Below the pieces are notes generated by a model, which was given only the letters and a program-made list of their open reading frames with translations, was not told where the DNA came from and did no database searches. The translations under genes were made by a program, and so were the position numbers. DNA of 64,000 nucleotides from Escherichia coli (GTDB lineage: Bacteria; Pseudomonadota; Gammaproteobacteria; Enterobacterales; Enterobacteriaceae). The number at the start of each line of letters is the position of its first letter. Position 1 is the stretch's first letter. Of this stretch, positions 18,242-43,049 are shown piece after piece. The stretch lies in NCBI RefSeq assembly GCF_048403405.1, contig NZ_CP183129.1. The stretch is one strand, 5' to 3'.

Positions 18242-18244
18242 GAG

Positions 18245-18320: not shown

Positions 18321-18371
18321 GATACTGCGCTGGATACTACAAACTACTTCCACCGAACCCACCGTAATTAG

Positions 18372-18447
18372 TGGTGGGTCGTGCAGGATTCGAACCTGCG
18401 ACCAATTGATTAAAAGTCAACTGCTCTACCAACTGAGCTAACGACCC
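18372..18447 (-). tRNA. tRNA-Lys (anticodon UUU)
   Basis: Identical copy of the tRNA-Lys sequence. Confidence 0.95.
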
Positions 18448-18449
18448 GG

Positions 18450-18525
18450 TGGTGGGTGATGACGGGATCGAACCGCCGACCCCCTCCTTGTAAGGGAGGT
18501 GCTCTCCCAGCTGAGCTAATCACCC
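18450..18525 (-). tRNA. tRNA-Val (anticodon UAC)
   Basis: Identical copy of the tRNA-Val sequence; 2-nt spacer. Confidence 0.95.
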
Positions 18526-18560
18526 GATACTACGCTGGATACTACAACTAACTAGGTTAG

Positions 18561-18636
18561 TGGTGGGTCGTGCAGGATTCGAACCTGCGACCAATTGATT
18601 AAAAGTCAACTGCTCTACCAACTGAGCTAACGACCC
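18561..18636 (-). tRNA. lysT: tRNA-Lys (anticodon UUU)
   Basis: Promoter-proximal copy of tRNA-Lys in the array. Confidence 0.95.
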
Positions 18637-26163: not shown

Positions 26164-27732
26164 TTAGCGTGCCGGCTGAGTAGTCGTGGAAGACTGCTCA
26201 AAGTGATAGCGACCGGTTTTCAGGCTGCTTGGGCCGAGGCGTGCAAACTTGAACATTAAGAACAATTCTGCCACCAGGAACAGGGTATACAGGCCGCAAA
26301 TCAGCACCATTGAGAAGATGAGATCGCCTGCGGTCAGTGACGAGTTCGCCACAGCTGTCGGCAGCACTTCACCGATAGCCCACGGTTGGCGGCCATATTC
26401 AGCCACGAACCAGCCCGCTTCTACAGCAATCCACGGCAGCGGAATACCATACAGCGCGGCGCGCAGCAGCCATTTTTTCTCGCCAATGCGGTTGCGGATG
26501 ACACTCCAGAAAGAGAGCGCGATGATTGCCAGCAGCAGGAAGCCACACGCCACCATGATACGGAACGCGAAGTACAGCGGCGCTACACGCGGAATGGAGT
26601 CTTTGGTTGCCTGTTGAATCTGCGCTTCAGTCGCATCAGCCACGTTTGGCGTATAGCGTTTCAGCAGCAGACCGTAACCGAGGTCTTTCTTCATGCTATT
26701 GAACTGGTCACGAACCGCCTGGTCGGTAGAACCAGAACGCAGTTGTTCGAGCAGAGAGTACGCCTTCATCCCGTTACGAATGCGTTCTTCATGCTGCACC
26801 ATCAGTTCTTTCAGGCCGATAACTGGAGTATCCACGGAACGCGTTGCAATGATGCCCAGCGCGTAAGGGATCTGGATCGCAAATTTGTTCGTCTCCTCTT
26901 CCTGATCAGGAATGCCGAACAGAGTAAAGGCAGCAGGCGCAGGTTGCGTTTCCCACTCGGCTTCAATAGCAGCCAGTTTGGTTTTCTGCACGTCGCCCAT
27001 TTCGTAACCAGATTCATCACCCAGAACAATAACAGACAGAACGGCAGCCATACCGAAGCTGGCAGCGATAGCAAAGGAGCGTTTAGCGAAGGCGAAGTCA
27101 CGACCTTTCAGCATATACCATGCGCTGATACCGAGGATGAACATCGCGCCAGTCACATAACCAGACGCTACAGTGTGAACGAATTTCACCTGAGCAACCG
27201 GGTTAAGCACCAGCTCGGAGAAGCTCACCATCTCCATACGCATAGTTTCAAAGTTGAAATCGGACGCGATTGGGTTTTGCATCCAGCCGTTCGCAACCAG
27301 AATCCACAGTGCGGACAGGTTTGAACCGAGCGCCACCAGCCAGGTGACACACATATGCTGAACTTTACCCAGACGATCCCAACCGAAGAAGAACAGACCT
27401 ACAAAGGTGGATTCGAGGAAGAAGGCCATCAGACCTTCGATTGCCAGCGGCGCACCGAAGATATCCCCTACATAGTGGGAATAGTAAGACCAGTTAGTCC
27501 CGAACTGGAACTCCATAGTCAGACCGGTAGCCACACCCAGAGCGAAGTTGATACCAAACAACTTGCCCCAGAACTTGGTCATATCTTTATAAATCTGTTT
27601 GCCGGAAAGGACGTAGACCGTTTCCATAATGGCCAGCAGGAACGCCATACCGAGCGTCAGTGGCACAAAAAGGAAGTGGTACATCGCGGTCAAGGCAAAC
27701 TGTAAGCGCGACAGTTCGACTATATCTAACAT
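26164..27732 (-). CDS. cydA: Cytochrome bd-I ubiquinol oxidase subunit I
   Basis: Start at the second Met ([20 protein letters not shown]..., 522 aa); recognised as CydA. Confidence 0.96.
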
Positions 27733-28069
27733 CATGACTCCTTGCTCATCGCATGAAGACTCCGAGAGTGAACCCCGTTAGAAAGGGTCACACGCATGCC
27801 CCAATACAAAATTATTTGCTCGCCTCTATCGTTGCCATTTCATCAAAAGAGGAAAAGACAATGATAAAAAAGTTACAAATATGTTAATGAATAAACCAAA
27901 TTGATCCCGTAATTATATTACGCCGCAAAATCCTTACAATAAACAGGTTTTTATTGAGCAAATTTGCATTTTTCGACAGTGATCAATTTATAGCGAAATT
28001 GTCACGATCTCACCAATTTGATCTACGACAATTTATCGTGTTTTGCAGATTTTTTTCAAGAATTAAAAA

Positions 28070-28083
28070 TTGATTTATATCAA
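28070..28083 (-). promoter_or_regulatory. Candidate FNR site in the cydA upstream region
   Basis: Perfect TTGAT-N4-ATCAA (ttgatttatatcaa) about 340 bp upstream of cydA; a weaker half-site match ttgatctacgacaa lies at 28018-28031. Confidence 0.55.
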
Positions 28084-28537
28084 AACCAACCAAATATGTT
28101 AATTATGTATAAACCATAGATCATTGGTGATTTTATTGTTAATTTATTGTGAAATATTTATGCAACACAATTATTACAATGAAAAGGTATAGATAAAAAA
28201 CCAGTGTTTTATTTAACAGAACCGCCTTATCCACTTTTTATAATACCAATTGATTAGATTAGCCAATTTGTTGCTATTTTACATAACATATTTTTATCAA
28301 AGTTAATTGATTGTTGCGTTTATGAGCACCGGCCGTAAGCCCGTTATGTTATTGTTTCATTAGTAATAATCACTTAAATGTATCGATGAAACAGGTATGA
28401 CTTAGCGGGAGTGATTGTTTCTGAGTGAACAGAGACCACTTTCGCCTGATAAATGAAAAATGAGCGATTTTTGCAAGTTAGTTTTTCTATAGCCGAGTAC
28501 GCTCAGCGCCTCGCTTGATTACAATGAGGTTGCTGCT

Positions 28538-29482
28538 ATGAGTCCTGATAATATCAGTTCTGCTGTCAATCGCTTCTCAGGTTGGCCATCTAATGATCCT
28601 CTAAAAACAGATAAAGAATCAATGACATCACCCATGACTGTGCAGGTAATAAAGATGATTGCCGCCATCCTTGACCCACATCGGATAGTCGTTGGAATCG
28701 ATACACTTTATACAACGCAGCGCGAAACATTTACCTCAGAGAGTCAACAGCTCATTGAATCAGCATTGCAAACACTTCATGTGATGAATTTAAATAACCT
28801 GGAAACAAATCTCGATGAGGAAGGTCACTATCTGGCTTTTGGATATAACGTTGACACTCCTGACAGAATAACCGTTTCTGCTTATAATGAAAAAAAGCCT
28901 GGCTGCTATGGCCAATGTCTTTTAATACAGGATGACGAAACAGACTTATTTAACCTGATAAAAGTTAAAATTTTTGAAGCCAGGCATAATTATGTCGCTC
29001 AATTGATGAGCGATCCGGAATTTATGTTCAAATTTAGTTATAGCGCTCAACAAAATAGATTAGAACCTCATCTTCTGGTTCCCACTTATTTCCCTCTAAA
29101 AACAAACGAACCGGTTACGCAAGAGGATGTACTGTTACTTTATCGTTTCTTTAAAATGGATGGTGATTTTAATATATTAACATCAGATGAATACATGAGT
29201 ATCATGACACCTCTGATGAAGTGTGAGCGCAGCATCCACGACCACAACAGGTATGTGACGGGCAAAGATACCCTTCTTCTGGACTATCCTCCTTCTGGTA
29301 ACCAGATATATTTCCATATTTTTCCTGACGAATCAGCAACACTAGTCCTTTATTTTTCAAACAATGACATTGAATGTTTCGTCTTTGAAAGAGATATTCC
29401 GAGCCAGTATCGCTTTTTCAAAATGTTTACCAATCTGGCACTGGTTATTGATCAGTTAACCGATGCCAATCAAATACTTTAA
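28538..29482 (+). CDS. Hypothetical protein, 314 aa, no recognisable domain; in an AT-rich block
   Basis: Long ORF in a visibly AT-rich region; polar Ser/Pro/Asn-rich N-terminus (MSPDNISSAVNRFSGWPSNDP), no signal peptide or TM segment seen; plausible purine-rich RBS-like stretch upstream (aatgaggttgctgctATG). Confidence 0.6.
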   Translation: MSPDNISSAVNRFSGWPSNDPLKTDKESMTSPMTVQVIKMIAAILDPHRIVVGIDTLYTTQRETFTSESQQLIESALQTLHVMNLNNLETNLDEEGHYLAFGYNVDTPDRITVSAYNEKKPGCYGQCLLIQDDETDLFNLIKVKIFEARHNYVAQLMSDPEFMFKFSYSAQQNRLEPHLLVPTYFPLKTNEPVTQEDVLLLYRFFKMDGDFNILTSDEYMSIMTPLMKCERSIHDHNRYVTGKDTLLLDYPPSGNQIYFHIFPDESATLVLYFSNNDIECFVFERDIPSQYRFFKMFTNLALVIDQLTDANQIL

Positions 29483-29562
29483 TTTTTATATATTCCCTGT
29501 GGCAAATATTGCTAAACAATGCCCGGGGATTAATTTTTATTACTCACGGAAAGATTTAAATA

Positions 29563-29985
29563 ATGATCCCATCTCAAATCTCTTTCAACACCCTTCCTGT
29601 CAATGCAACATACGCTTCAGAGACAACAGTTGACACACAAAAATTCTCTGACATCCTCTACTCAGCGGGGTGTTCCCTAAAGGATCTGGCTTATTTGAGC
29701 AGATGTCTGGCATCAATACATCCGACTATCGCCAAAAACATTTATGAAACAGAAAATCTCAGCGATCAAAAATTACTACATATTGATTGCCGTAGTACAA
29801 ATGAAATCAAGATAAATATCTTTTTTGGTCAACAACGAGAAGGATTAATTGAAATTAGTTCTGACACAGTCATTTTTTCGATACTGTCTTCATTGATTGA
29901 CTCCACCATTTCTAAATTTCAACACCAAAACCCCGTTAACGGTTCTGTAAATCCTGACCTATTGTATGAGGATTATACTGATTAA
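29563..29985 (+). CDS. Hypothetical protein, 140 aa, acidic, no recognisable domain
   Basis: ORF 80 bp downstream of the 314-aa ORF on the same strand; by my count about 17 Asp+Glu against about 9 Lys+Arg; same AT-rich context. Confidence 0.5.
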   Translation: MIPSQISFNTLPVNATYASETTVDTQKFSDILYSAGCSLKDLAYLSRCLASIHPTIAKNIYETENLSDQKLLHIDCRSTNEIKINIFFGQQREGLIEISSDTVIFSILSSLIDSTISKFQHQNPVNGSVNPDLLYEDYTD

Positions 29986-30532
29986 ATCCCTCCTGTCGCG
30001 AAAAATGGCCTGCGTTATTGCCAGACGTAATAAAACTTTTGATTAACGTTTCTCGTACTGGTAGCACCTTCATGTACTTTTCTTTTTTACGAAAAATCAA
30101 AAGAGCTAACAAAGGTCATAATTCGCATGAATCATTAATTATTTGTTATTTTCAACATTATTTTTACATTAAGCAGAGATGAATTGCAGTGAAATTCGAC
30201 TTAACTTTTATGAAATGCATTTACTCATGGCTAAAGCCACGTCACAAAAATGCAAATTAGAAGTAGATCACAAATATCTCAATACATCAAATCAAGTTAA
30301 TTTTAAAAATTTAATATTCATGACATTAGTTGACATAACACACTGAATTATAATGAGAATTTGAAAACACACTTTAAACAATCATTTCCCGAAAGACATT
30401 TTGAAAATAGATCAATTGCAACATTACGGTCAGATAAAGACACTCCTGTGATATTAAACCTGTGCCGTTATGAACGGCCATAAATACGACGTGTGTAACT
30501 TATTTTACTCTCTGTCTTACAAAGGATTACCC

Positions 30533-30982
30533 ATGAAGAAAGCAACACTTGTGATTGGCGTTATTGGCGCGGACTGCCATGCAGTAGGCAATAAAGTTCT
30601 GGACCGCGTTTTTAGCAACCATGGCTTCAGAGTCATTAATCTGGGCGTAATGGTCAGCCAGGACGAATATATTGATGCTGCCATTGAAACTGGTGCTGAC
30701 GCGATTGTCGTCTCCTCTATCTATGGGCATGGCGATATCGATTGTCTGGGCATGCGCGAACGCTGCATTGAGCGTGGGCTGGGTAACATCCTGCTCTATG
30801 TGGGCGGTAACCTGGTGGTCGGAAAACATGACTTCGCTGACGTGGAAACCAAGTTCAAAGAGATGGGATTTGATCGCGTCTTTGCCCCAAGTCATGACTT
30901 AGAAGATGTTTGTCAGCTGATGGCCCACGATATCAACCAACGTCATGACGTTGATACTCGCATTCTTGAAGAGGCAATCTGA
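30533..30982 (+). CDS. mamA: Glutamate mutase sigma (S) subunit, B12-binding component
   Basis: Start set at [21 protein letters not shown] (good RBS aaaggattacccATG); carries the cobalamin His-ligand motif DxHxxG (DCHAVG); close resemblance to clostridial GlmS/MutS as I recall them. Confidence 0.9.
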
Positions 30983-32370
30983 TGCAAATCGTCTCTGTCG
31001 ATATTGGATCGACGTGGACCAAAGCAGCCCTCTTCGCCCGGGAGGGGGACGCGTTAACGTTGGTTAACCACGTACTGACCCCAACCACCACCCATCATCT
31101 GGCGAAGGGTTTTTTCTCCAGCCTGAACCTGGTGTTAAACGTAGATAATGCCCTCCCCCTGTTTAACAACGGTGAGGTTGCATTGAAGTATTCCTCCTCT
31201 GCCAAAGGTGGGCTGGCGGTTGCCGCAATGGGGTTGGTGCCATCTATCACCCTGGAAACCGCGAAAGTAACCGCTCACTCTGCGGGGGCTAAAATTGCGC
31301 AATATTACGCCTACAAGCTGAACCGCCGTGATATCCAGGCACTGGAAGAAACGCAGCCCGATATTCTCTTGTTCACCGGCGGCACCGACGGCGGAGAAGA
31401 AAGCTACGGCCTGAATAACGCCCGTGTGCTGGCAGAATCCAAACTCGACTGCGCCATTATTTATGCCGGAAACCGGGATATTCAGGACGAGGTGCAGGAG
31501 ATCCTAGGGCATAAAGACCTGACCATCGTCGACAACGTTCTGCCCGATCTTGACCATCCGAACCCTTTAGCTGCACGCCAGGCTATCTGCGACATATTCC
31601 TTAAACGCATCGTTAAAGGGAAAGGGCTGGATGTCATTGTTGATAAAACAGGCGAAGAACCAATGCCGACACCATGGACGGTCTTTGAACTGGTTAAGGC
31701 AATCAGTAACGTCGATCACAGCTGGAAAGAGTTCATGCTTATCGACATGGGCGGCGCAACCACCGATGTCTATTCAGCCTGTGCCAACACGCTCTCGCCC
31801 GACACCGTTTTACACGGCGTACCGGAACCCTTCGTGAAACGGACGGTGGAAGGCGATCTGGGAATGCGCGTCTCGGCAATGGTGGTTGGTGAAAGTGCGA
31901 AAGAGTTAGTCAATGTGAATTTTGCTCAGCAACCCGCACAGCTGGACGCTTTTTATCATTACCTCCGTCATCTAGTCGCTCATCCCGACTACTTACCCGC
32001 GAATGTAGAAGAAAAATATTTCGATACCGTCCTGGCCGGACTGTGTGTGGGTTATGCCACCGAAAGACATGCGGGCACCAAAAAAGAGGTCTGCACCTGC
32101 GTCGGCAATGTCGATTTACAGATGGGACGTGACCTGACAACCGTGCGTAAAGTCGTCGGATCCGGCGGATGGCTCTCGCGTGCCAGTCAGTTCGATATGC
32201 ATCACTGGTTGAAATACCGCGAGTTAAACGACGACGGTAAACGCATTCTCTTACCGACCGAATTTGAATATTACCGCGATTCCCGGGGGCTATTACCACT
32301 GCTGGCAAACGTCGCCAGAGTCGATCCGCTGGCCGCCGCGCGCACCAGTATTCAATGCTTAACCCTATAA
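30982..32370 (+). CDS. glmL: Glutamate mutase-associated L component (MutL/GlmL-like, putative reactivating chaperone)
   Basis: 462-aa ORF whose ATG overlaps the S-subunit stop (ATGA); sits between S and E as in clostridial mutS-mutL-mutE; N-terminus [18 protein letters not shown] is an ASKHA-type phosphate-1 motif. Confidence 0.75.
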   Translation: MQIVSVDIGSTWTKAALFAREGDALTLVNHVLTPTTTHHLAKGFFSSLNLVLNVDNALPLFNNGEVALKYSSSAKGGLAVAAMGLVPSITLETAKVTAHSAGAKIAQYYAYKLNRRDIQALEETQPDILLFTGGTDGGEESYGLNNARVLAESKLDCAIIYAGNRDIQDEVQEILGHKDLTIVDNVLPDLDHPNPLAARQAICDIFLKRIVKGKGLDVIVDKTGEEPMPTPWTVFELVKAISNVDHSWKEFMLIDMGGATTDVYSACANTLSPDTVLHGVPEPFVKRTVEGDLGMRVSAMVVGESAKELVNVNFAQQPAQLDAFYHYLRHLVAHPDYLPANVEEKYFDTVLAGLCVGYATERHAGTKKEVCTCVGNVDLQMGRDLTTVRKVVGSGGWLSRASQFDMHHWLKYRELNDDGKRILLPTEFEYYRDSRGLLPLLANVARVDPLAAARTSIQCLTL

Positions 32371-32388
32371 CAATTAAGGCTGCAATCA

Positions 32389-33834
32389 ATGGAACTTCGA
32401 AATAAGAAATTAACCCATGACGAATTCATGACCGAGCGGCAACAGGTACTGAAAACCTGGGAAACCGGCAAGGATGTTGAAAACTTTGAAGATGGCGTTA
32501 AATACCAACAAACCATTCCTGAGCATAAACGCTTCTCTCTTGTGCTGTTGAAAGCAGACAAGGAAGGTAAAACCCTTAGCCAACCGCGCGCAGGTGTGGC
32601 GCTGATGGACGAACACATCGAACTACTGAAAACACTACAAGAAGAGTGCGATCTGCTGCCGAGCACTATCGATGCATATACCCGTCTGAATCGGTACGAA
32701 GAAGCGGCTGTAGGGATTAAAAAATCCATCGAAGCCGGAACCTCTAAACTGAACGGTTTACCGGTCGTTAACCACGGCGTCGCAGCTTGCCGTCGCCTCA
32801 CCGAAACTTTGCAAAAACCGCTACAGATCCGCCACGGCACGCCAGATGCGCGTCTGCTGGCTGAAATCTCGATGTCCAGCGGCTTTACCAGTTATGAAGG
32901 CGGCGGCATTTCCTACAATATTCCGTATGCCAAGCGCGTAACGCTGGAAAAATCGATCCGCGACTGGCAGTACTGCGACCGTTTAATGGGGATGTATGAA
33001 GAACACGGGATCCGCATCAACCGCGAACCGTTTGGCCCACTAACGGGTACGCTGATCCCGCCGTTTATCTCGCACTCTATCGCGATAATCGAAGGCTTGC
33101 TGGCGCTGGAACAGGGTGTGAAATCTATCACCGTTGGTTATGGACAGGTCGGCAGCCTGACGCAGGATGTTGCGGCGATCCAGTCTCTGCGTGAACTTGC
33201 ACACGAATATTTTCAGAGCTATGGCTATACCGACTATGAATTAAGTACCGTGTTTCACCAGTGGATGGGCGGCTTTCCGGAAGACGAATCGAAAGCGTTC
33301 GCTATTATCTCCTGGGGCGCAGCCGTCGCGGGGATGTCTGGTGCCACCAAAGTCATCACCAAAAGTCCGCACGAAGCCTGGGGTATCCCGACTGCCGCTG
33401 CCAACATTCAGGGGCTGAAAGCCTCCCGCCAGATGCTCAACATGGTCAACGAGCAGAAATTCCCGCCGTGCCCTGCGGTTGAACTGGAAATTGAACTGAT
33501 TAAGAGCGAGGTTCGCGCGGTACTGAATAAAGTGTTCGAACTGGGTAATGGTGATATTGCGCGCGGTACGGTGCTGGCATTTGAAGCGGGCGTACTGGAT
33601 GTGCCGTTTGCGCCAGCCGCCTGCAACGCGGGCAAAATTCTTCCGGTCCGTGACAACACCGGCGCGATACGCGTACTGGAAGCCGGAGCCGTTCCATTGC
33701 CAAAAGATATTCTCGACCTCCACCACGATTACGTTGCGGAACGCGCACGCTTTGAAGGACGCCAACCGACATTCCAGATGGTTGTAGATGACATCAATGC
33801 TGTATCCCACAGTAAATTAATAGGAAGACCATAA
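32389..33834 (+). CDS. glmE: Glutamate mutase epsilon (E) catalytic subunit
   Basis: 481 aa; MELRNKKLTHDEF..., QPRAGVALMDEHIELL, LPSTIDAYTR, NGLPVVNHGV and GGGISYNIPYAK closely parallel clostridial GlmE/MutE as I recall it. Confidence 0.9.
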   Translation: MELRNKKLTHDEFMTERQQVLKTWETGKDVENFEDGVKYQQTIPEHKRFSLVLLKADKEGKTLSQPRAGVALMDEHIELLKTLQEECDLLPSTIDAYTRLNRYEEAAVGIKKSIEAGTSKLNGLPVVNHGVAACRRLTETLQKPLQIRHGTPDARLLAEISMSSGFTSYEGGGISYNIPYAKRVTLEKSIRDWQYCDRLMGMYEEHGIRINREPFGPLTGTLIPPFISHSIAIIEGLLALEQGVKSITVGYGQVGSLTQDVAAIQSLRELAHEYFQSYGYTDYELSTVFHQWMGGFPEDESKAFAIISWGAAVAGMSGATKVITKSPHEAWGIPTAAANIQGLKASRQMLNMVNEQKFPPCPAVELEIELIKSEVRAVLNKVFELGNGDIARGTVLAFEAGVLDVPFAPAACNAGKILPVRDNTGAIRVLEAGAVPLPKDILDLHHDYVAERARFEGRQPTFQMVVDDINAVSHSKLIGRP

Positions 33835-35075
33835 TGAAAATAAAACAGGCTCTGTTCACCGCTGGCTACTCCTCATTCTATTTCGATGACCAGCAGGCGA
33901 TAAAAAACGGAGCGGGTCACGACGGTTTTTTTTATACCGGGGAGCCGGTAACACAGGGGTTTAACGCCGTTCGTCAGGCCGGGGAGTGCGTATCGGTACA
34001 GTTGATTCTGGAAAACGGCGCGGTCGCCGTAGGTGACTGTGCTGCCGTACAGTATTCCGGGGCAGGTGGTCGCGATCCACTGTTCCTCGCAGAGCACTTT
34101 ATTCCGTTCCTCAACGACCATATCAAGCCATTACTGGTAGGCCGCGATGTGGATGCTTTCCTGCCGAATGCCCGTTTCTTCGACAAATTGCGTATTGACG
34201 GCAACTTGCTGCATACCGCCGTGCGCTACGGATTATCACAGGCGCTGCTTGATGCTACCGCGCTGGCAACCGGCCGTCTGAAAACTGAAGTGGTCTGTGA
34301 TGAATGGCAGTTGCCACGCGTGGCGGAATCCATTCCATTATTTGGTCAGAGCGGCGACGATCGATATATCGCCGTCGATAAGATGATCCTTAAGGGCATC
34401 GACGTGCTGCCCCATGCGCTGATTAATAACGTCGAAGAGAAGCTGGGCTTTAAAGGTGAAAAACTGCGCGAATATGTCCGCTGGCTGTCGGATCGTATTC
34501 TGAGCAAGCGCACCAGCGCACGCTACCACCCTACCCTGCACATCGATGTATACGGCACTATCGGTCTGATCTTCGATATGGATCCGCTTCGCTGTGCGCA
34601 ATACATCGCCAGCCTGGAAAAAGAAGCGCAAGGCCTGCCGCTCTACATTGAAGGGCCGGTCGATGCTGGTAACAAGCCCGATCAAATTCGCCTGCTGACC
34701 GCGATTACCAAAGAGCTGACACGCCTCGGTTCCGGCGTGAAAATTGTGGCCGATGAATGGTGTAACACCTACCAGGATATTGTTGATTTCACAGATGCCG
34801 CCAGTTGCCACATGGTGCAAATCAAAACCCCGGATCTGGGCAGTATTCACAACATCGTCGATGCGGTTCTTTACTGCAACAGCCACAGCATGGAAGCGTA
34901 CCAGGGCGGCACCTGCAATGAAACTGATGTCAGTGCCCGCACCTGTGTCCACGTCGCCCTTGCCGCTCGCCCTATGCGTATGCTGGTAAAGCCAGGGATG
35001 GGCTTTGACGAAGGCCTCGATATCGTCTTCAACGAAATGAATCGTACTATCGCGCTGTTGCAGGCTAAGGATTAA
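33834..35075 (+). CDS. mal: 3-Methylaspartate ammonia-lyase (enolase superfamily)
   Basis: 413 aa; ATG overlaps the glmE stop; DCAAVQYSGAGGRDPLF, QSGDDRY, LPHALINNVEEKLG, HMVQIKTPDLG and GGTCNET match MAL as I recall it. Confidence 0.93.
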   Translation: MKIKQALFTAGYSSFYFDDQQAIKNGAGHDGFFYTGEPVTQGFNAVRQAGECVSVQLILENGAVAVGDCAAVQYSGAGGRDPLFLAEHFIPFLNDHIKPLLVGRDVDAFLPNARFFDKLRIDGNLLHTAVRYGLSQALLDATALATGRLKTEVVCDEWQLPRVAESIPLFGQSGDDRYIAVDKMILKGIDVLPHALINNVEEKLGFKGEKLREYVRWLSDRILSKRTSARYHPTLHIDVYGTIGLIFDMDPLRCAQYIASLEKEAQGLPLYIEGPVDAGNKPDQIRLLTAITKELTRLGSGVKIVADEWCNTYQDIVDFTDAASCHMVQIKTPDLGSIHNIVDAVLYCNSHSMEAYQGGTCNETDVSARTCVHVALAARPMRMLVKPGMGFDEGLDIVFNEMNRTIALLQAKD

Positions 35076-35078
35076 CAA

Positions 35079-36449
35079 ATGGCTCGTTCTTTTAAAGTCT
35101 TATCGCCAACGGCAATCCTCGGGTATGGATTCCCGGAAGAGAGCTTCCGTAAAGCGATGGCAGAATCGCCCGATCTGATCGCCGTTGATGCAGGCTCTTC
35201 CGATCCTGGCCCCCACTACCTCGGGGCGGGCAAACCGTTTACCGATCGCGCAGGGGTCAAGCGCGATCTGCGCTATATGATCACCGCAGGCGTGCAAAAT
35301 AATATACCGGTGGTGATCGGAACGGCTGGCGGTTCTGGTGCCGCACCACACCTGGAGTGGTGCCGAGAAATAATTCATGAGATTGCCCAGGAAGAGCACC
35401 TCTCGTTCTCAATGGCGCTGATCCCGGCAGACGTTGACAAAGCCATCGTCCACCAGGCGCTGGATAACGGCAAAATCACGGCGCTGGAGTTTGTCCCGCC
35501 GTTAACCCACGACGCGATTGACGAAAGTACGTATATCGTTGCGCAAATGGGCATCGAACCCTTCCAGCGGGCGCTGAAAGAAGGCGCGCAAGTGGTGCTG
35601 GGCGGGCGCGCTTACGACCCGGCCTGCTTTGCTGCGCTTCCGATCATGCAAGGCTTTGATGAAGGTCTGGCGCTGCATTGTGGGAAAATCCTTGAATGCG
35701 CGGCAATCGCCGCAACGCCCGGCTCAGGCTCTGACTGTGCGATGGGCATCATTGATGACAACGGCTTTACGCTGAAGACATTTAATCCGAAGCGTAAATT
35801 TACCGAAACGTCAGCGGCTGCACACACACTGTATGAGAAATCCGATCCCTACTTCCTGCCTGGACCTGGCGGCGTGTTGAACCTGAAAGGCTGCACATTT
35901 AAAGCGGTCAATGACAGCGAAGTGTACGTCAGCGGTTCTAAGCATGAAGAAACGCCGTATGCCCTGAAACTGGAAGGTGCGCGACGAGTGGGCTTCCGCT
36001 GTCTGACCATCGCAGGAACGCGCGACCCGATCATGATCGCCGGGATCGATAAAATCATCGATGAAGTCAAAACCAGCGTTTCGCGTAACCTGTCGCTCGA
36101 CGATGACAGCATTCGCATCAATTTCCACCTGTACGGCAAAAACGGGGTGATGGGAGACCATGAACCGATGCAAACTGCCGGGCATGAGCTGGGGATTGTC
36201 CTTGATGTAGTTGCACCGACCCAGGAAATTGCCAACAGCGTTTGCTCGCTGGTGCGCTCTACCATGCTGCACTACGGCTATGAAAACCGCATCGCTACCG
36301 CAGGTAATCTGGCGTTCCCGTTCTCCCCTTCTGATATCCAGGGCGGGCCGGTATACGAATTTTCCATATATCACCTGATTGAAGCCAACGACGCTCTGCG
36401 TTTTGATTTCCATATTGAACAGGTGACGCCAGAAGGAGTTCAGGCATGA
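35079..36449 (+). CDS. Uncharacterised protein, probably DUF1446 / AtuA-like family
   Basis: 456-aa ORF starting 4 nt after the MAL stop; family assignment is from memory of AtuA-like N-terminal features and is not verified. Confidence 0.5.
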   Translation: MARSFKVLSPTAILGYGFPEESFRKAMAESPDLIAVDAGSSDPGPHYLGAGKPFTDRAGVKRDLRYMITAGVQNNIPVVIGTAGGSGAAPHLEWCREIIHEIAQEEHLSFSMALIPADVDKAIVHQALDNGKITALEFVPPLTHDAIDESTYIVAQMGIEPFQRALKEGAQVVLGGRAYDPACFAALPIMQGFDEGLALHCGKILECAAIAATPGSGSDCAMGIIDDNGFTLKTFNPKRKFTETSAAAHTLYEKSDPYFLPGPGGVLNLKGCTFKAVNDSEVYVSGSKHEETPYALKLEGARRVGFRCLTIAGTRDPIMIAGIDKIIDEVKTSVSRNLSLDDDSIRINFHLYGKNGVMGDHEPMQTAGHELGIVLDVVAPTQEIANSVCSLVRSTMLHYGYENRIATAGNLAFPFSPSDIQGGPVYEFSIYHLIEANDALRFDFHIEQVTPEGVQA

Positions 36450-36763
36450 AACAGTCAATTGTCTCACTGGCGCAAGTCATTCGTTCGAAAAATGCCGGAC
36501 CTTACGAACTGGTTTTAGATATTTTATTTAAAACCAAAGAAAACTATGAGCGTGTCAAATCATCAGGGCAATTAACCCCAGAACTGATCGCGCGCTTATA
36601 TCATGTTGAACCTGACTTTATTCATCGTATTGTCTGGTTTGATCCTTCTAACGCAGTAAAAATCGTCATGCCACGAGATATTATCTCCGGGAATGTAGGT
36701 GACAATGATGTCTATGGTGCACAGCAACATGCACCTTTATTAAATATGAGTTTCGATTTGTAA
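36446..36763 (+). CDS. Small uncharacterised protein, possibly DUF4387, coupled to the upstream ORF
   Basis: 105-aa ORF whose ATG overlaps the upstream stop (ATGA); family name is a tentative recollection. Confidence 0.45.
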   Translation: MKQSIVSLAQVIRSKNAGPYELVLDILFKTKENYERVKSSGQLTPELIARLYHVEPDFIHRIVWFDPSNAVKIVMPRDIISGNVGDNDVYGAQQHAPLLNMSFDL

Positions 36764-36846
36764 AAATCCGAATACTTTTAGCCAACTGACATCCCGTCAC
36801 TTATTGCAGTTCAACACTTCAGCTATTTGTAAGGTTGTAATAGCAG

Positions 36847-36878
36847 GTAGATGCCTGAATCTCTATTCGGGCATCTAC
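36847..36878 (+). terminator. Intra-operon stem-loop (possible partial terminator or attenuator)
   Basis: 9-bp perfect stem gtagatgcc / ggcatctac with a 14-nt loop, followed by a U-rich but interrupted tract (ttctcctgattctgattt); lies between the small coupled ORF and the transporter. Confidence 0.4.
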
Positions 36879-36923
36879 TTCTCCTGATTCTGATTTATCG
36901 CCGTGCACCTGATGGAGGAAAAA

Positions 36924-38204
36924 ATGAAGAAAATAAGTTTAACCACGATGATTCTTTTGGCGCTGGTACTTGGAATGATTATCGGCGTAGTGCTCAATAA
37001 CACTGCTTCACCGGAAACCGAAAAACTCTATGCGCAAGAAATATCGATATTCACGACGATTTTCTTACGACTGATAAAAATGATTATCGCTCCGTTAGTG
37101 GTCTCTACCCTGGTGGTAGGTATAGCTAAAATGGGCGATGCCAAAGCCCTTGGTCGTATTTTTTCTAAAACACTCTTTTTATTTATTTGCGCCTCATTGC
37201 TGTCAATTGCCTTAGGCTTGATAACAGTAAATTTCTTCATGCCAGGCACAGGAATTAATTTTGTTGCACACGGAGCCGAAACCACCGGAGTGGTCGCGTC
37301 AGAACCCTTTACGCTAAAAGTATTTATTTCGCATGCTTTCCCCACCAGCATTGTCGATGCCATGGCGCACAATGAAATTTTGCAAATCGTGGTGTTCTCA
37401 ATTTTCCTCGGCTGTAGCCTGACGGCGATTGGCGAGAAAGGCAGCGCCATCGTTCACGCCTTAGATTCGCTGGCACATGCCATGTTAAAGCTCACTGGCT
37501 ACGTCATGCTCTTCGCTCCCCTGACCGTATTCGCTGCTATTTCAGCATTGATTGCTGAACGAGGACTGGCAGTTATGGTGAGCGCCGGGATCTTTATGGG
37601 TGAATTTTATTTCACCATGTTATTACTTTGGGTGCTGCTTATCGGTCTGGCCATCGTTTATGTTGGCCCCTGCATCAGACGCCTGACCCGCGCCCTTTCG
37701 GAACCCGCCCTGCTGGCATTTACCACATCCAGTTCTGAAGCGGCTTTTCCGGGAACGCTTGAAAAACTGGAGCAATTTGGCGTTTCCCCCAAAATTGCCA
37801 GCTTTGTCTTACCCATTGGCTACTCATTTAATCTTGTTGGATCAATGGCCTACTGCTCCTTCGCCACAGTTTTCATCGCCCAGGCCTGCAATATCCATTT
37901 ATCCATCGGTGAGCAAATCACCATGCTGTTGATCCTGATGTTGACCTCGAAAGGAATGGCTGGCGTACCACGCGCCTCAATGGTGGTTATCGCCGCCACG
38001 CTCAACCAGTTCAATATTCCGGAAGCGGGGCTGATCTTGCTGATGGGCGTTGATCCGTTCCTTGATATGGGGCGTTCCGCGACAAACGTCATGAGCAACG
38101 CAATGGGCGCTGCGATGGTGAGTCGGTGGGAAGGCGAACATTTCGGCGAGGGTTGTCGGGGTAAAGCATTAAAACCCAATGAATCGAACGTTGCTCTGCC
38201 CTGA
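36924..38204 (+). CDS. Dicarboxylate/amino acid:cation symporter (DAACS family; GltP/DctA-like)
   Basis: Start at MKKISLTTMILL with RBS ggagg 5 nt upstream; about 426-aa polytopic protein; LRLIKMIIAPLV and surrounding TM pattern typical of DctA/GltP family carriers. Confidence 0.8.
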   Translation: MKKISLTTMILLALVLGMIIGVVLNNTASPETEKLYAQEISIFTTIFLRLIKMIIAPLVVSTLVVGIAKMGDAKALGRIFSKTLFLFICASLLSIALGLITVNFFMPGTGINFVAHGAETTGVVASEPFTLKVFISHAFPTSIVDAMAHNEILQIVVFSIFLGCSLTAIGEKGSAIVHALDSLAHAMLKLTGYVMLFAPLTVFAAISALIAERGLAVMVSAGIFMGEFYFTMLLLWVLLIGLAIVYVGPCIRRLTRALSEPALLAFTTSSSEAAFPGTLEKLEQFGVSPKIASFVLPIGYSFNLVGSMAYCSFATVFIAQACNIHLSIGEQITMLLILMLTSKGMAGVPRASMVVIAATLNQFNIPEAGLILLMGVDPFLDMGRSATNVMSNAMGAAMVSRWEGEHFGEGCRGKALKPNESNVALP

Positions 38205-38311
38205 GGGGGATCTTAAGCAATCAGAAGCCAATGACTACGCATTTTTATAAGCCGGATCATGAAGTTAGACGGCAATTAAGTAAAACTAACGTTTAAGGTG
38301 AAAAGTGAAAT

Positions 38312-39964
38312 ATGTCCAAACCATTTATCTGGCAAGAACCGTTTCTACAAAATAAAGACGGTACAGAATATACATTAATTAGCGATCAACATATTACAGT
38401 AACGGAATTAGACGGCGAAGAAGTAATAAAAATCGCTCCTGAAGCATTAACGCTGCTTGCCCGGCAGGCATTTTATGAAGCCTCTTTTTTCTTACGTTCC
38501 GCTCATTTGCAACAGGTCGCCAGCATTCTTAACGATCCGCAGGCCAGTAGTAATGATAAATACGTTGCGTTGCAGTTATTACGTAATGCTGAAGTCTCAG
38601 CAAAAGGGGTATTACCCAACTGTCAGGATACCGGCACCGCAACTATTGTTGCCAGTAAAGGGCAACAGATATGGACGGGAGGTAACGACGCTGAAGCCTT
38701 AAGCAAAGGCATTTACAGTACTTTCCAGGAAAATAACCTGCGCTTTTCACAAAATGCGCCGCTGGATATGTACACCGAAGTCAATACGCAAACCAATCTC
38801 CCGGCGCAGATTGATATCAGCGCTGTCGCTGGTGATGAGTACCATTTTCTCTGTATTAATAAAGGGGGCGGCTCTGCCAATAAAGCCGCGCTTTATCAGG
38901 AAACCAAATCCTTATTGCAACCAGAAAAACTGACCGCATTTTTAATCGAAAAAATGAAATCGCTGGGCACCGCTGCCTGCCCGCCTTACCACATCGCCTT
39001 TGTCGTCGGAGGGCTTTCAGCCGATCAAACCTTAAAAGTTGCCAAGCTGGCCTCAACGAAATATTACGACAATTTGCCCACCAGCGGAAACGAGCAAGGA
39101 CAAGCATTCCGTGATATTGAGCTGGAAAAAGTATTGCTCGAGGCCAGTCAGCAATTTGGTATTGGTGCGCAATTTGGAGGTAAATATTTCGCTCATGATA
39201 TTCGCGTCATTCGTCTGCCGCGTCACGGTGGCTCCTGCCCGATAGCTATGGCGCTCTCCTGTTCTGCCGATCGCAATATCAAAGCAAAAATTAACAAGCA
39301 CGGTATCTGGCTGGAAAAACTCGAACACAATCCGGGGCAATATATTCCAGCCTCACTGCGGGAAGAAAATCACGCGCAACATGTACAACTGGATCTAAAC
39401 CGTCCGTTGCGTGACGTGATGCAGGATCTCGCCAGATTACCGGTAGGCACCCGCGTGTCGTTAAGTGGTCCCATCGTAGTGGCACGCGATATCGCCCACG
39501 CCAAAATAAAAGCGCGGCTGGATAACGCCGAACCGATGCCGGATTACCTGAAGCATCATATTGTCTATTACGCTGGCCCGGCGAAAACACCGGAGAACAT
39601 GGCCTGCGGTTCACTGGGTCCAACCACGGGCGGTCGAATGGACGGTTATGTCGATACCTTCCAGGCGGCTGGCGGCAGTCTGGTGATGTTATCGAAAGGT
39701 AACCGCAGCCAGCAGGTCACCGATGCCTGTCACAAACATGGTGGCTTCAATCTGGGTAGTATTGGCGGTGCAGCTGCGTTACTGGCGCAAGAATATGTCA
39801 AAAGTCTGCGTTGCCTGGAATACCCGGAGCTGGGTATGGAAGCGGTGTGGATGATGGAAGTGGAAAATCTGCCCGCATTCATCCTGGTAGATGATAAAGG
39901 CAATAATTTCTTTAGTCAGTTTGAGCAGCAACACCGCTGCGCCAGTTGCCCTGCGGGACATTAA
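38312..39964 (+). CDS. fumD: Class I fumarate hydratase-type hydratase, probable mesaconase (FumD-like)
   Basis: 550 aa, same size class as FumA/FumB; N-terminal [22 protein letters not shown]... and [10 protein letters not shown] ([4Fe-4S] hydro-lyase signature region) recognised. Confidence 0.85.
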
Positions 39965-39973
39965 GGAAAATGA

Positions 39974-40576
39974 ATGGAAGCGCGAATTTCAACTGAACGG
40001 CATGTGCAGCGCCAGCAGAAATTGAAGGAACAGGTCGATACGCGCGTCGCGGCGGCGATAGAGAAAAAAGGGATTTTGATTGTTTTCACCGGCAATGGCA
40101 AAGGGAAATCCACTGCCGCGTTTGGTACTGTGACGCGCGCGGTGGGTCATGGCAAAACGGTGGGGGTTGCGCAGTACATCAAGGGGCAATGGGACAACGG
40201 CGAATACAACCTTCTCCAGCCGCTGGGGGTTGAGTTTCATATTATGGGAACCGGTTTTACCTGGGAGACACAGAACCGGCAAGCGGATATCGACGCGGCG
40301 AAAGAGGTCTGGTCGGAAAGCAAACGGATGCTGGCTGACAAGCGTTACGACTTAGTGGTGCTTGATGAGCTGACCTATATGCTGGCTTACCATTATCTGG
40401 ACACCGAAGAAGTGATCGCTTCTCTGCAAAACCGCCCGGCACAACAAAGTGTCATTGTCACCGGACGCGGTTGCCACAGTCAGATATTAAAAATGGCGGA
40501 TACGGTCAGCGAAATCCGCCCCGTCAAACATGCTTTTGATAACGGCATTCAGGCGCAGCCGGGTATCGACTGGTAA
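39974..40576 (+). CDS. Cob(I)yrinic acid a,c-diamide / cob(I)alamin adenosyltransferase (CobA/BtuR family)
   Basis: 200 aa; P-loop GNGKGKST; near-colinear with E. coli BtuR as I recall it (IIVFTGNGKGKTTAAFG...GFTWETQNR...VVLDELTYM...VKHAFD). Confidence 0.88.
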   Translation: MEARISTERHVQRQQKLKEQVDTRVAAAIEKKGILIVFTGNGKGKSTAAFGTVTRAVGHGKTVGVAQYIKGQWDNGEYNLLQPLGVEFHIMGTGFTWETQNRQADIDAAKEVWSESKRMLADKRYDLVVLDELTYMLAYHYLDTEEVIASLQNRPAQQSVIVTGRGCHSQILKMADTVSEIRPVKHAFDNGIQAQPGIDW

Positions 40577-40579
40577 TAA

Positions 40580-40606
40580 CTGCGCCTGGCATCCCGCCAG
40601 GCGCAG
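40580..40606. terminator. Bidirectional terminator between the adenosyltransferase gene and the convergent LysR gene
   Basis: Perfect 11-bp inverted repeat ctgcgcctggc / gccaggcgcag with a 5-nt loop, flanked by A/T; abuts both stop codons. Confidence 0.7.
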
Positions 40607-40609
40607 GTT

Positions 40610-41515
40610 TTACATCTCCTGCGGTACGACCGATTTCGCCAGCAACCATTCACGAAATTGCTGCAAGTGCGGCGAGTCAGACTTCTCTTCCTGCCACGTC
40701 ATAATAAAACGATTACCGGTACGAATAGGCACATCACAGGGAATCACCATATCGCCACTATCCAAATCATGTTGAATAGCGAACCGTGGTAACAGCGCCA
40801 CGCCGAGATTAGAGCGCACGGCGGCAATCAGCATTGAAAGCAAATCGAAACGTGGTCCGTTATTGACCAGCGGACTGCTAACGCCAGATAAAGCAAACCA
40901 CTCTTCCCAGCCAGTAATACGGGTGCTTTGATGCAGAAGTGGTAACTCAGTAAGCAGTTCTGCCACTGACAGTTTTTGATCGGACATTGCAAGCAAACTG
41001 CCGCTGCATACCGGCAAAATCTCCTCATCAAAGAGATATTCTACTTCCGCCCAGGGCGCGCAAAAATTTTCGCGCATAATGACAGCATCGTACTCCCGAT
41101 TAAGAAAATCGCCGTTATTAGCTAAAGAATGAATATTAACAATAATATCGGGATGTAACTTTGTGAATTCATGTAAATTTGGGATTAACCAGTGGGTACT
41201 AAAAGTAGGATTAACGGCAAGTTCAATAACCTGAACCGTAGGCTGCCAGGTCATAATGGTATTGGTATCGCGTTCCAGCTTATTTAATGTTTCTTTTACT
41301 ATCCCCAGGTAATACTTCCCTGCATCATTAAGAAAAATACGTTTTTTAGAGTGTGAAAATAACGGAGTATGTAAAAATTCCTCCAGCGCACTCACTTGTC
41401 TGAATACAGCACTTTGGGTTAACGCTAACTCCTCTGCCGCTCTGGTATAACTTTCATGACGTGCGACGACCTCAAAAGTCACCAGCAGCTCCGTTTTAGG
41501 TATTTTTCCTCGCAT
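40610..41515 (-). CDS. LysR-type transcriptional regulator
   Basis: 301 aa; N-terminal HTH (ESYTRAAEELALTQSAVFRQVSALEE) and LysR substrate-binding domain. Confidence 0.88.
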   Translation of the reverse strand: MRGKIPKTELLVTFEVVARHESYTRAAEELALTQSAVFRQVSALEEFLHTPLFSHSKKRIFLNDAGKYYLGIVKETLNKLERDTNTIMTWQPTVQVIELAVNPTFSTHWLIPNLHEFTKLHPDIIVNIHSLANNGDFLNREYDAVIMRENFCAPWAEVEYLFDEEILPVCSGSLLAMSDQKLSVAELLTELPLLHQSTRITGWEEWFALSGVSSPLVNNGPRFDLLSMLIAAVRSNLGVALLPRFAIQHDLDSGDMVIPCDVPIRTGNRFIMTWQEEKSDSPHLQQFREWLLAKSVVPQEM

Positions 41516-41554
41516 AATGCCGTCCCTTAAAAATAGTTTAAACCATCAAAAATA

Positions 41555-41576
41555 CATTACTTATTACGAAGTAATG
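41555..41576 (-). promoter_or_regulatory. Dyad-symmetric site upstream of the LysR gene (candidate autoregulatory operator)
   Basis: Perfect inverted repeat cattactt-attacg-aagtaatg centred about 50 bp upstream of the LysR start codon, in AT-rich DNA. Confidence 0.4.
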
Positions 41577-42080
41577 GTAACCAAAGCAGCAATAAATAAT
41601 TTATAAGAATCATGATTGACATTTATAACCCAGTAAGCCTGGCGTGACAAATATCTTAATCAGATAATAATAATCCGAAAAGCACAGCGCCTTTCGAATT
41701 ATCCGGAATCACATTAAGTGAAAATTATTAAATTGATATCATTTATCATATCTGTGGATATTATGATAAACAATCAACAAAGATTTTATTTTTGATTTAT
41801 AGCATATCCCTCTAAGAATTTTTGCGATGCTGCAATATCCGGGTAAAGACCCGATCCTGGCTGACAAATGGCACGACTTGACGATAAGCGGTGAACATCG
41901 CTTTTGTTGATTTACTTAACGCTACGGTCAAACGCTGGGAAGCCAGTGCATCAGGTAACGATTCGAAATTCGCCGTCGTTCTTATTCGTGGCTTGCGGTC
42001 GGTTGCGGCAATCCACAGTGGCTGTGGTCATGCAGTCAAGCCAGCGGTCAGATTTCGACCGTGGTTAACATTTAAGGCAT

Positions 42081-42179
42081 AAAAAAGGCCATCATACGAT
42101 GGCCAACCATGTCGAAACCGACAGCCCTTCGCCATTCCTGTAGAGGGAAGCGGCGAGGGCTATTTCTTATTACAGATAT
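42081..42179 (-). ncRNA. sdhX: Probable SdhX (RybD)-type sRNA from the sucD 3' UTR, with intrinsic terminator
   Basis: Directly downstream of the sucD stop; ends in hairpin ggccatcgtatgatggcc followed by a T run (read on the minus strand); K-12 has an sRNA at this position; the 5' boundary is undefined because it is a processing product. Confidence 0.55.
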
Positions 42180-43049
42180 TTATTTCAGAACAGTTTTCAG
42201 TGCTTCACCGATATCCGCCAGGCTGCGAACGGTTTTCACGCCTGCGGCTTCCAGAGCAGCGAATTTCTCATCCGCAGTCCCTTTTCCACCGGCAATGATC
42301 GCACCCGCGTGGCCCATACGTTTGCCTTTCGGCGCAGTCACACCAGCGATGTAACCCACAACAGGCTTGGTAACGTGCTCTTTGATGTACGCAGCCGCTT
42401 CTTCTTCAGCGCTACCGCCGATCTCACCGATCATCACGATCGCTTCGGTCTGCGGATCTTTTTCGAACATTTCGAGGATGTCGATAAAGTTAGAGCCAGG
42501 GATCGGGTCGCCGCCGATACCAACACAGGTCGACTGACCGAAACCGTAATCCGTGGTCTGTTTCACCGCTTCATAGGTCAGTGTACCGGAACGGGAAACG
42601 ATACCCACTTTACCCGGTTTGTGAATGTGACCAGGCTGGATACCGATTTTGCATTCACCCGGAGTGATAACGCCTGGGCAGTTCGGGCCGATCATGCGAA
42701 CGCCCGCTTCATCCAGTTTCACCTTCACGGTCAGCATATCCAGCGTCGGGATGCCTTCAGTGATGGTGATAATCAGTTTGATGCCTGCATCAATAGCTTC
42801 CAGAATGGAGTCTTTGCAGAACGGTGCTGGTACGTAGATAACAGAAGCGGTAGCGCCAGTAGCAGCAACAGCTTCACGCACGGTGTTGAACACCGGCAGG
42901 CCGAGGTGGGTGGTGCCGCCTTTACCTGGGGTTACGCCGCCAACCATTTTAGTGCCGTATGCAATGGCCTGTTCTGAGTGGAAAGTCCCCTGGCTACCGG
43001 TAAAGCCCTGGCAGATAACCTTGGTGTTTTTATCAATTAAAATGGACAT
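42180..43049 (-). CDS. sucD: Succinyl-CoA synthetase alpha subunit
   Basis: 289 aa, [24 protein letters not shown]...; recognised as SucD. Confidence 0.97.

Follow-up and report, generated by a model that had tools for sequence, protein, structure and literature searches.

What lies between cydA and sucD in an Escherichia coli chromosome that lacks the mngR-mngAB genes found there in K-12, and did it arrive as a foreign island that displaced them? The question is raised by a stretch of 64,000 nucleotides of the E. coli contig NZ_CP183129.1 (assembly GCF_048403405.1; the whole stretch is called the window below), for which an earlier note, made from the sequence alone, had proposed that an island of about 14 kb had taken the place of mngR-mngAB. 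The interval holds the enterobacterial methylaspartate-pathway operon for glutamate catabolism that has already been described in E. coli O157:H7. We read it, with a probability of about 0.8, as an ancestral B12-dependent glutamate operon of the Enterobacteriaceae that has been differentially lost, K-12 being among the losers, and not as a foreign island that displaced mng. The cluster was published in 2015, and what is new here consists of modest refinements to a known locus: its haplotypes and their junctions, the relics of lost genes, a conserved box upstream of the operon, and the independence and orphan status of an AT-rich gene pair at its side.

Enzymes and regulation of the operon

Genes were called from a list of open reading frames (ORFs), from NCBIfam scans and from the PGAP annotation of E. 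coli TUM14771, a genome that is 100% identical to the window over 27000-43000 and 99.98-100% identical elsewhere. The operon and its candidate control elements are as follows, with the main evidence in brackets.

30401-30419, plus strand: conserved 19-nt box, putative LysR operator (cross-genus alignment)
30533-30982, plus strand: glmS, glutamate (methylaspartate) mutase B12-binding subunit S (NF002612, TIGR01501)
30982-32370, plus strand: glmL, glutamate mutase accessory (reactivating chaperone) protein (NF040745, TIGR01319)
32389-33834, plus strand: glmE, glutamate mutase catalytic subunit E (TIGR01503, PDB 6H9E/1CCW)
33834-35075, plus strand: mal, 3-methylaspartate ammonia-lyase (TIGR01502, PDB 1KKO/1KKR)
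35079-36449, plus strand: cmlA, citramalate lyase large subunit, AtuA/DUF1446 family (PDB 9ERQ/9EVF chain A)
36446-36763, plus strand: cmlB, citramalate lyase small subunit, DUF4387, overlapping cmlA by 4 nt (PDB 9ERQ/9EVF chain B)
36924-38204, plus strand: DAACS-family dicarboxylate/amino acid:cation symporter (PGAP name, NCBIfam matches below cut-off)
38312-39964, plus strand: fumD, class I (Fe-S) fumarase-type mesaconase (NF011921)
39974-40576, plus strand: cobO, ATP:cob(I)alamin adenosyltransferase (NF004637, TIGR00708)
40580-40606, no strand: GC-rich hairpin between the convergent cobO and lysR (terminator scan, inverted repeat I15)
40610-41515, minus strand: LysR-type regulator, GcvA-like (best NCBIfam match GcvA)

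The gene content given in the earlier note, including glutamate mutase, methylaspartase and an AT-rich block with two orphan ORFs, agrees with both NCBIfam and PGAP. GlmS (252 bits with NF002612, cut-off 110; 245 bits with TIGR01501, cut-off 136), GlmE (863 bits with TIGR01503, cut-off 390), Mal (544 bits with TIGR01502, cut-off 286), the fumarase (1284 bits with NF011921, cut-off 1060) and CobO (296 bits with NF004637, cut-off 185; 247 bits with TIGR00708, cut-off 168) all exceed the curated equivalog cut-offs by wide margins. GlmL passes the accessory-protein equivalog NF040745 narrowly (507 bits, cut-off 475) and scores 885 bits with TIGR01319. Two of the enzymes match solved structures over their full length, GlmE the glutamate mutase epsilon subunit 6H9E/1CCW (635 bits) and Mal the 3-methylaspartate ammonia-lyase 1KKO/1KKR (898 bits). 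The DxHxxG cobalamin-binding motif of GlmS is present as DCHAVG at residues 14-19, and the glmS start codon is backed by a ribosome-binding site that is conserved across genera. The fumD of the window is almost the same as that of O157:H7 (nonsynonymous divergence, dN, 0.005), whose product has been shown to be a mesaconase/fumarase that prefers mesaconate (Kronen & Berg 2015, PMC4682846).

The description of the fifth and sixth genes as two uncharacterised coupled ORFs is outdated. The product of the first is about 92% identical over all 456 residues (971 bits) to chain A of PDB 9ERQ/9EVF, deposited as "Citramalate lyase, subunit A (cmlA)", and residues 1-104 of the 105-residue product of the second match chain B, "Citramalate lyase, subunit B (cmlB)", with 193 bits. 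By these matches the (S)-citramalate-cleaving enzyme of the pathway would be present as CmlAB. Raoultella planticola CmlAB has been described as an enzyme that splits citramalate directly into pyruvate and acetate. After laboratory evolution, an E. coli expressing R. planticola cmlAB showed mesaconate-dependent growth, labelled mesaconate carbon reached acetyl-CoA in it, and plasmid curing ended the growth (bioRxiv 10.64898/2026.01.16.699985). The use of mesaconate-derived citramalate by CmlAB in vivo was thus shown with the enzyme of another species. In the 2015 paper the DUF1446 gene was called unknown and the fate of citramalate was left open (PMC4682846), and the naming of CmlAB closes this gap for the cydA-sucD locus.

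Because the coupled ORF pair corresponds to CmlA/CmlB, a complete route from glutamate through methylaspartate, mesaconate and citramalate to pyruvate and acetate (plus ammonia) appears to be encoded. The DAACS symporter would bring in glutamate, which the adenosylcobalamin-dependent GlmS/GlmE would turn into (2S,3S)-3-methylaspartate, with GlmL keeping the mutase active and CobO providing adenosylcobalamin. Mal would then release ammonia to give mesaconate, the oxygen-sensitive Fe-S hydratase FumD would convert mesaconate to (S)-citramalate, and the two-subunit lyase CmlAB would split this into pyruvate and acetate. The symporter lies below the cut-offs for both DctA (314 bits, cut-off 513) and GltP (305 bits, cut-off 638), and is presumed to import glutamate or a C4/C5-dicarboxylate.

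A candidate for the control of the operon was found about 115 nt upstream of the glmS ATG, where the box TTGAAAATAGATCAATTGC (30401-30419) contains the dyad TTGA-N7-TCAA (30401-30415), a T-N11-A pattern. The box is invariant in the glmS upstream regions of eight genera (Escherichia, Klebsiella, Salmonella, Citrobacter, Pseudescherichia, Lelliottia, Enterobacter and Buttiauxella), in which the neighbouring sequence cannot be aligned; in the window it occurs once, with 0 occurrences expected by chance. The regulator itself is best matched by GcvA (222 bits, under the cut-off of 288), and its gene is kept at the cluster end in the Enterobacteriaceae and lies divergently, directly upstream of glmS, in Yersinia. 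Given the invariance of the box in otherwise unalignable surroundings, and given that lysR is retained with the cluster and in Yersinia is transcribed away from glmS, we regard the box as a putative operator of this regulator, by which the convergently encoded LysR-type protein would control the operon. The FNR consensus is TTGAT-N4-ATCAA, of 14 nt, and the box was rejected as an FNR site, its dyad spanning 15 nt. The hairpin between cobO and lysR has an 11-pair stem with nine GC pairs in the terminator scan and is likely to be a bidirectional terminator. No Rfam family matched within 27000-43000 at E-values up to 0.1, and accordingly neither a recognisable cobalamin riboswitch nor a family for the sucD 3' untranslated region was found there.

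Distribution across genera and haplotypes of the interval

As the earlier note had stated, the interval is bordered by K-12-like chromosome, tol-pal/cydABX to the left and sucDCBA-sdh-gltA to the right. The features of the two borders are as follows.

26164-27732, minus strand: cydA, left flank
27733-28108, minus strand: cydA upstream regulatory region, common to K-12-type loci (blastn against locus L005; GC 0.335)
28109-28373, no strand: AT-rich segment without counterpart in K-12-type loci (blastn; GC 0.275)
41534-41981, no strand: AT-rich spacer, replacing the lysR-rtcB intergenic region and the 5' three-quarters of rtcB
41980-42082, plus strand: rtcB pseudogene remnant, including the stop codon (tblastn with the intact RtcB of locus L011)
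42077-42179, minus strand: sucD 3' untranslated region with intrinsic terminator (terminator scan; stem 42087-42104, T-tract to 42077)
42180-43049, minus strand: sucD, right flank

Homology to the K-12-type locus L005 stops at 28108 and restarts at 42077 (blastn), so that the variable segment is 28109-42076. The absence of mngR, mngA and mngB from the cydA-sucD interval of the window holds. The left border depends on the locus compared, and homology to loci with a TPR-protein gene (TPR-type) runs on to 28373: the segment 28109-28373 is 80-84% identical to loci L003, L004, L042 and L056 and is common to the TPR-type loci of E. coli and to E. whittamii (blastn). The right border is common to every haplotype, and homology to K-12-type, TPR-type and full loci begins at 42077-42079 in each case. 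We found no integrase, transposase or insertion sequence among the ORFs or annotation of the interval, no tRNA in 27000-43000 (tRNA scan), no repeats at the borders (repeat search) and no attachment-site-like features; the earlier note, too, had seen no integrase, insertion sequence, tRNA or direct repeats there. The nearest tRNA genes are those of the lysT-valT array at 18166-18636, in which the window has five genes (Lys, Val, Lys, Val, Lys) and TUM14771 has seven annotated, so that the two are very close relatives with different tRNA copy numbers.

A CmlA scan of one genome per species returned 61 loci, the gene order of which was read by a synteny script. In 60 loci from many phyla, cmlA is always preceded by mal and then comes cmlB, and the core glmSLE-mal-cmlAB reaches Yersinia, Morganella, Hafnia, Budvicia, Aromatoleum, Telmatospirillum, Firmicutes and Dictyoglomus. 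The whole series glmS-glmL-glmE-mal-cmlA-cmlB-DAACS-fumD-cobO-lysR lies between cydA and sucD in Klebsiella grimontii, K. michiganensis, several Citrobacter and Salmonella enterica subsp. arizonae. Pseudescherichia vulneris has the same operon at this site without cobO, and E. whittamii a version without intact symporter and cobO. Only the cydA flank was visible in K. oxytoca, K. spallanzanii, C. amalonaticus and C. braakii, and only the sucD flank in S. enterica subsp. diarizonae. Synonymous divergence (dS) of the cluster genes between genera is saturated (>1) and never below that of the flanks, and in a neighbour-joining tree of GlmE, Mal and CmlA the genera form clades, with the Enterobacteriaceae apart from other families. 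The codon adaptation index (CAI) of the cluster, 0.62-0.74, is close to that of the window's own core genes (0.66-0.77), and its dN/dS within E. coli is 0.0-0.19.

Because the cluster occupies the same site in related genera, has native-like codon usage and saturated dS, and follows a genus-congruent tree, its simplest reading is that of an old resident operon of the cydA-sucD interval that was lost many times. Of the island features tested (signs of mobility or attachment, atypical composition, and absence from the site in related genera or an incongruent tree) the metabolic cluster shows none. The earlier note's word "island" therefore does not hold for the metabolic part, the GC content of which is 0.506, and a foreign look was found only in the separate AT-rich orphan block (GC about 0.36, CAI 0.55-0.58). 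Metagenome-assembled genomes of Collinsella sp. (L013) and Citrobacter sp. (L012/L021) include contigs that match the cluster of E. coli with 99-100% identity; these are most likely binning contamination, not real transfer.

The haplotypes of E. coli bear on the fate of mng. The Escherichia interval is modular: on the cydA side it has the orphan pair, a TPR gene or nothing, in the middle the operon, and on the sucD side rtcB and then mngBAR. The following states were distinguished, with example loci.

mngBAR only (K-12 type): L005
TPR-protein gene only: L003
TPR gene and mngBAR: L004
orphan pair, cluster and rtcB remnant (the window and O157): L001, L007
orphan pair, cluster and intact rtcB: L006
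orphan pair, cluster, rtcB and mngBAR: L011, strain FDAARGOS_448
orphan pair, cluster, rtcB and mngBAR, with an internal deletion from cmlA to lysR: L002, strain A34

Among 5426 complete E. coli genomes, of which 1116 carry at least 80% of 27000-43000, the modules were counted as follows.

mngA: 3864 genomes
orphan block: 1134 genomes
TPR module: 1110 genomes
rtcB, at least 80% covered: 290 genomes (690 with any match)
rtcB-mngB junction: 133 genomes
LysR-rtcB-mngB contiguous: 118 genomes

About one-tenth of the cluster carriers thus also hold mng, and because cluster, rtcB and mngBAR stand together in fixed order in at least 118 genomes (for example FDAARGOS_448), cluster and mngBAR are neighbours and not alleles. 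In the window, two rtcB fragments, matching residues 375-398 and 451-464 of the intact L011 RtcB (tblastn), are fused to the sucD terminator, and relative to L006 and L002 the gene has lost 173 bp internally as well as its 5' part (blastn). These fragments at the junction indicate that the window descends from a longer locus. The spacer 41534-41981 has no similarity to the rtcB-bearing loci L006, L002 and L011; in E. whittamii and Escherichia sp. E1V33 the sequence between lysR and sucD matches it with 87-88% identity. The rtcB-remnant junction is also found in these two, which implies that the haplotype is old or has been exchanged within the genus.

Comparison of the junctions (a slash marks each breakpoint) shows a difference of 5.6 kb bounded by a TAAG microhomology: the full locus reads ...GTTTAAGG/GGTAAC... 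at the rtcB end and ...CGATAAG/CATAAAAAAGG... after mngR, and the window and L006 both read GTTTAAGGCATAAAAAAGG. The junction between mngR and the terminator is identical in K-12-type, TPR-type and full loci, which makes deletion of mngBAR a more parsimonious explanation than insertion at one point three times over. The arrangement in the window would stem from a longer locus with an intact rtcB, which most likely also had mngBAR; the latter would have been removed by the 5.6-kb deletion at the TAAG microhomology, and rtcB would have decayed separately. K-12-type and TPR-type loci would in turn be losers of the operon. In TPR-type loci a relic of glmS, interrupted by an in-frame stop, scores 33.1 bits, where the best of 300 shuffles reached 26.2; a weak rtcB relic lies collinearly behind it, and the glmS relic fits a loss of the operon there.

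The alternative is a one-step exchange, in which an island of 14 kb, acquired horizontally, took the place of mngR-mngAB through homologous recombination in the cydA and sucD flanks. It has in its favour that mng is absent from the window and from about 88-90% of the cluster carriers (1116-1134 carriers, as against 118-133 genomes with rtcB joined to mngB) and that the locus has no mobility genes, tRNA or repeats. Haplotypes, once formed, could plausibly spread between E. coli lineages by flanking homology, and the near-identical junction in E. whittamii is compatible with such exchange or, equally, with ancient polymorphism. However, a one-step replacement accounts neither for the coexistence of cluster and mngBAR nor for the rtcB fragments, and it is opposed by the presence of the cluster at the same site in at least five other genera with saturated dS and a genus-congruent tree, by its native-like codons and by the glmS relic of the TPR-type loci. 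We consider this origin improbable and largely refuted, and the allelic replacement proposed earlier is unsupported, the evidence at the sucD terminator pointing to deletion.

A literature search for earlier descriptions of the polymorphism of this locus returned nothing specific. About 1110 complete E. coli genomes have the TPR gene (about 370-400 amino acids) next to the region upstream of cydA, in place of orphan pair and cluster; it exists in two allele classes (L003:3562-4677 and L004:3776-4969), and about half of its carriers also have mngBAR. In about 290 complete genomes the stand-alone RtcB-family (RNA ligase-like) gene has lysR on one side and mngB or sucD on the other (intact at L011:16302-17699, FDAARGOS_448, and L006:15609-17006), and about 400 more, the window and O157:H7 among them, have fragments of it; no rtcA or rtcR partner is annotated in the rtcB loci inspected. 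In Citrobacter amalonaticus S646 (L055), mngB-mngA-mngR directly precedes glmS, whereas in E. coli these genes lie at the other end of the cluster, and the mng module has therefore moved within the interval in different genera.

The AT-rich orphan pair

Two genes stand between the left border and the operon.

28538-29482, plus strand: orf314, Escherichia-restricted
29563-29985, plus strand: orf140, Escherichia-restricted

Neither has a Pfam, NCBIfam, PADLOC or PHROG match. A word-indexed search of 5.8 billion clustered proteins found homologues of both only in Escherichia/Shigella, and a profile search of 1.84 billion representatives with orf314 found only Escherichia/Shigella relatives or fragments of the same family. 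Orf314, orf140, the TPR protein, RtcB and a 258-residue protein of locus L008 have no similarity to one another. The AlphaFold2 confidence (predicted local distance difference test, pLDDT) was 44 for orf314 and 41 for orf140, too poor for a fold search. Both behave as real, fast-evolving, Escherichia-confined genes, since dN/dS is 0.34-0.43 for orf314 and 0.38 for orf140 and the reading frame of orf314 keeps its length of 314 codons, free of indels, even where amino-acid identity is 65%; some orf140 homologues are frameshifted. Their codon usage looks foreign (third-position GC about 0.35-0.36; CAI 0.58 for orf314 and 0.55-0.58 for the pair).

The locus L008:9880-12562 (Logan SRR11658232) comes from another Escherichia lineage, with a cydA dS of 0.28 to the window, and has the order cydA, orf314 homologue (65% identity), orf140 relic, the 258-residue protein and sucD, with neither glm cluster nor mng; the 258-residue protein has a signal-peptide-like N-terminus and no family match on record. 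Orf314 was already next to cydA before E. coli and other Escherichia lineages diverged, and has kept its full length there. The pair is absent from all non-Escherichia genera that hold the cluster, and this, its foreign composition and the orf314 homologue without glm genes in L008 mark it as a module separate from the metabolic cluster. That the pair might instead belong to the pathway, as regulators or accessory factors, would suit its position immediately upstream of glmS on the same strand and its presence in nearly all E. coli that carry the cluster (1134 with the block, 1116 with the cluster). The same three observations that separate the modules speak against such a role, as does the conserved putative operator and promoter downstream of the pair, and we regard it as very unlikely. 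It is a long shot, too, that the pair encodes something new, for instance a toxin/immunity-like pair, a factor that is secreted or interacts with the host, or a modulator of the neighbouring cyd or glm promoters; the idea of secretion is speculation prompted by the Ser/Thr/Pro-rich N-termini.

Beyond the right flank, the fimbrial usher gene ybgQ of the ybgOPQD operon (54919-57378, plus strand; coordinates mapped via L074, which aligns without gaps to 42167-64000 of the window) has an internal stop in the matching genome, the annotation of which calls it a pseudogene.

Function in E. coli and comparison with known systems

Several points weigh against the reading of the locus as an ancestral operon for glutamate catabolism. 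E. coli is not known to make B12 de novo, and the activity of the operon would depend on external corrinoids. On the side of history, we infer the polarity of the mng event, deletion as opposed to insertion; no relic of the cluster was found in the 470-bp segment of K-12-type loci; and the rtcB relic of TPR-type loci is weak alone (23.9 bits, a score reached by about 1% of the shuffles). The pairing of the LysR-type protein with the box is a prediction from sequence comparison. For CmlAB, our literature search found no primary paper but only the preprint in which the enzyme is used, and the assignment comes from the names of the PDB deposits and that preprint. Racemic citramalate, when supplied, did not support growth of the cmlAB-expressing strains (bioRxiv 10.64898/2026.01.16.699985), and the in vivo support for the cleavage step is therefore indirect. 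Kronen and Berg, working with O157:H7, could not find a condition that brought about expression of the cluster; they saw no anaerobic growth that depended on glutamate, and extracts showed neither citramalate lyase nor methylaspartase activity (PMC4682846). The in vivo function of the operon in E. coli is therefore a prediction.

The silence of O157:H7 under every condition tried would also suit an operon that is cryptic or decaying in E. coli, or one that works in another direction, using external mesaconate, methylaspartate or citramalate or serving in detoxification. In favour of such readings, E. whittamii has neither symporter nor cobO intact, strain A34 has an internal deletion, the AT-rich promoter regions may be silenced, the symporter matches the C4-dicarboxylate carrier DctA as well as GltP, and FumD and Mal are reversible enzymes. 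Yet all ten genes are intact in the window and match their family profiles at full length, dN/dS within E. coli is low, and the operon, with its dedicated adenosyltransferase and chaperone, has long been kept across many genera. This long retention argues for selection on the B12-dependent step, which is needed only from glutamate. We judge the cryptic or reverse-acting operon unlikely, if less so than replacement by an island, and favour the ancestral operon for glutamate catabolism.

About one-fifth of E. coli, O157:H7 included, keep an apparently ancestral enterobacterial operon; K-12 and the majority of other strains would have lost it, and K-12 would represent the derived state. The interval is a modular hotspot, the defined junctions of which can be used for haplotype typing, and the conserved box together with the cognate LysR gene provides a handle for seeking the inducing condition that earlier work could not find.

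The closest known system is the cluster of O157:H7, described as a glutamate fermentation cluster, which the earlier note had rightly named: gene content, gene order and chromosomal site are all the same, including the FumD mesaconase, CobA/CobO, a GltP-like transporter, a LysR-type transcriptional regulator and the DUF1446 gene, its DNA is 98.3% identical over 16 kb, and the locus of the window differs from it only in strain (Kronen & Berg 2015, PMC4682846). In that paper the cluster was reported in 26.5% of E. coli and in 90.6% of O157:H7. The clostridial methylaspartate pathway (glm-mal-mesAB-citDEF in C. tetanomorphum and C. tetani) has the same chemistry and homologous GlmS, GlmE, GlmL (MutL) and Mal. 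However, its mesaconase is the two-subunit MesAB, whereas here it is the single-chain class I fumarase FumD, and citramalate is cleaved there by a citrate-lyase-like CitDEF complex and here by an AtuA/DUF4387-type CmlAB (PMC4682846). Compared with the clostridial clusters, the enterobacterial operon also adds an adenosyltransferase of its own, a DAACS symporter and a LysR-type regulator.

In the haloarchaeal methylaspartate cycle, mesaconate is converted to mesaconyl-coenzyme A (CoA) by a CoA-transferase and hydrated as the CoA ester (PMC5592240). The operon described here has no CoA-transferase, and free mesaconate would be hydrated and free citramalate cleaved. The mngR-mngAB genes of K-12, which encode a 2-O-alpha-mannosyl-D-glycerate phosphotransferase system and a hydrolase, occupy the same cydA-sucD interval and share the same end junction directly after the sucD terminator; their function is unrelated, and they represent a neighbouring module and not an allele of the methylaspartate cluster.

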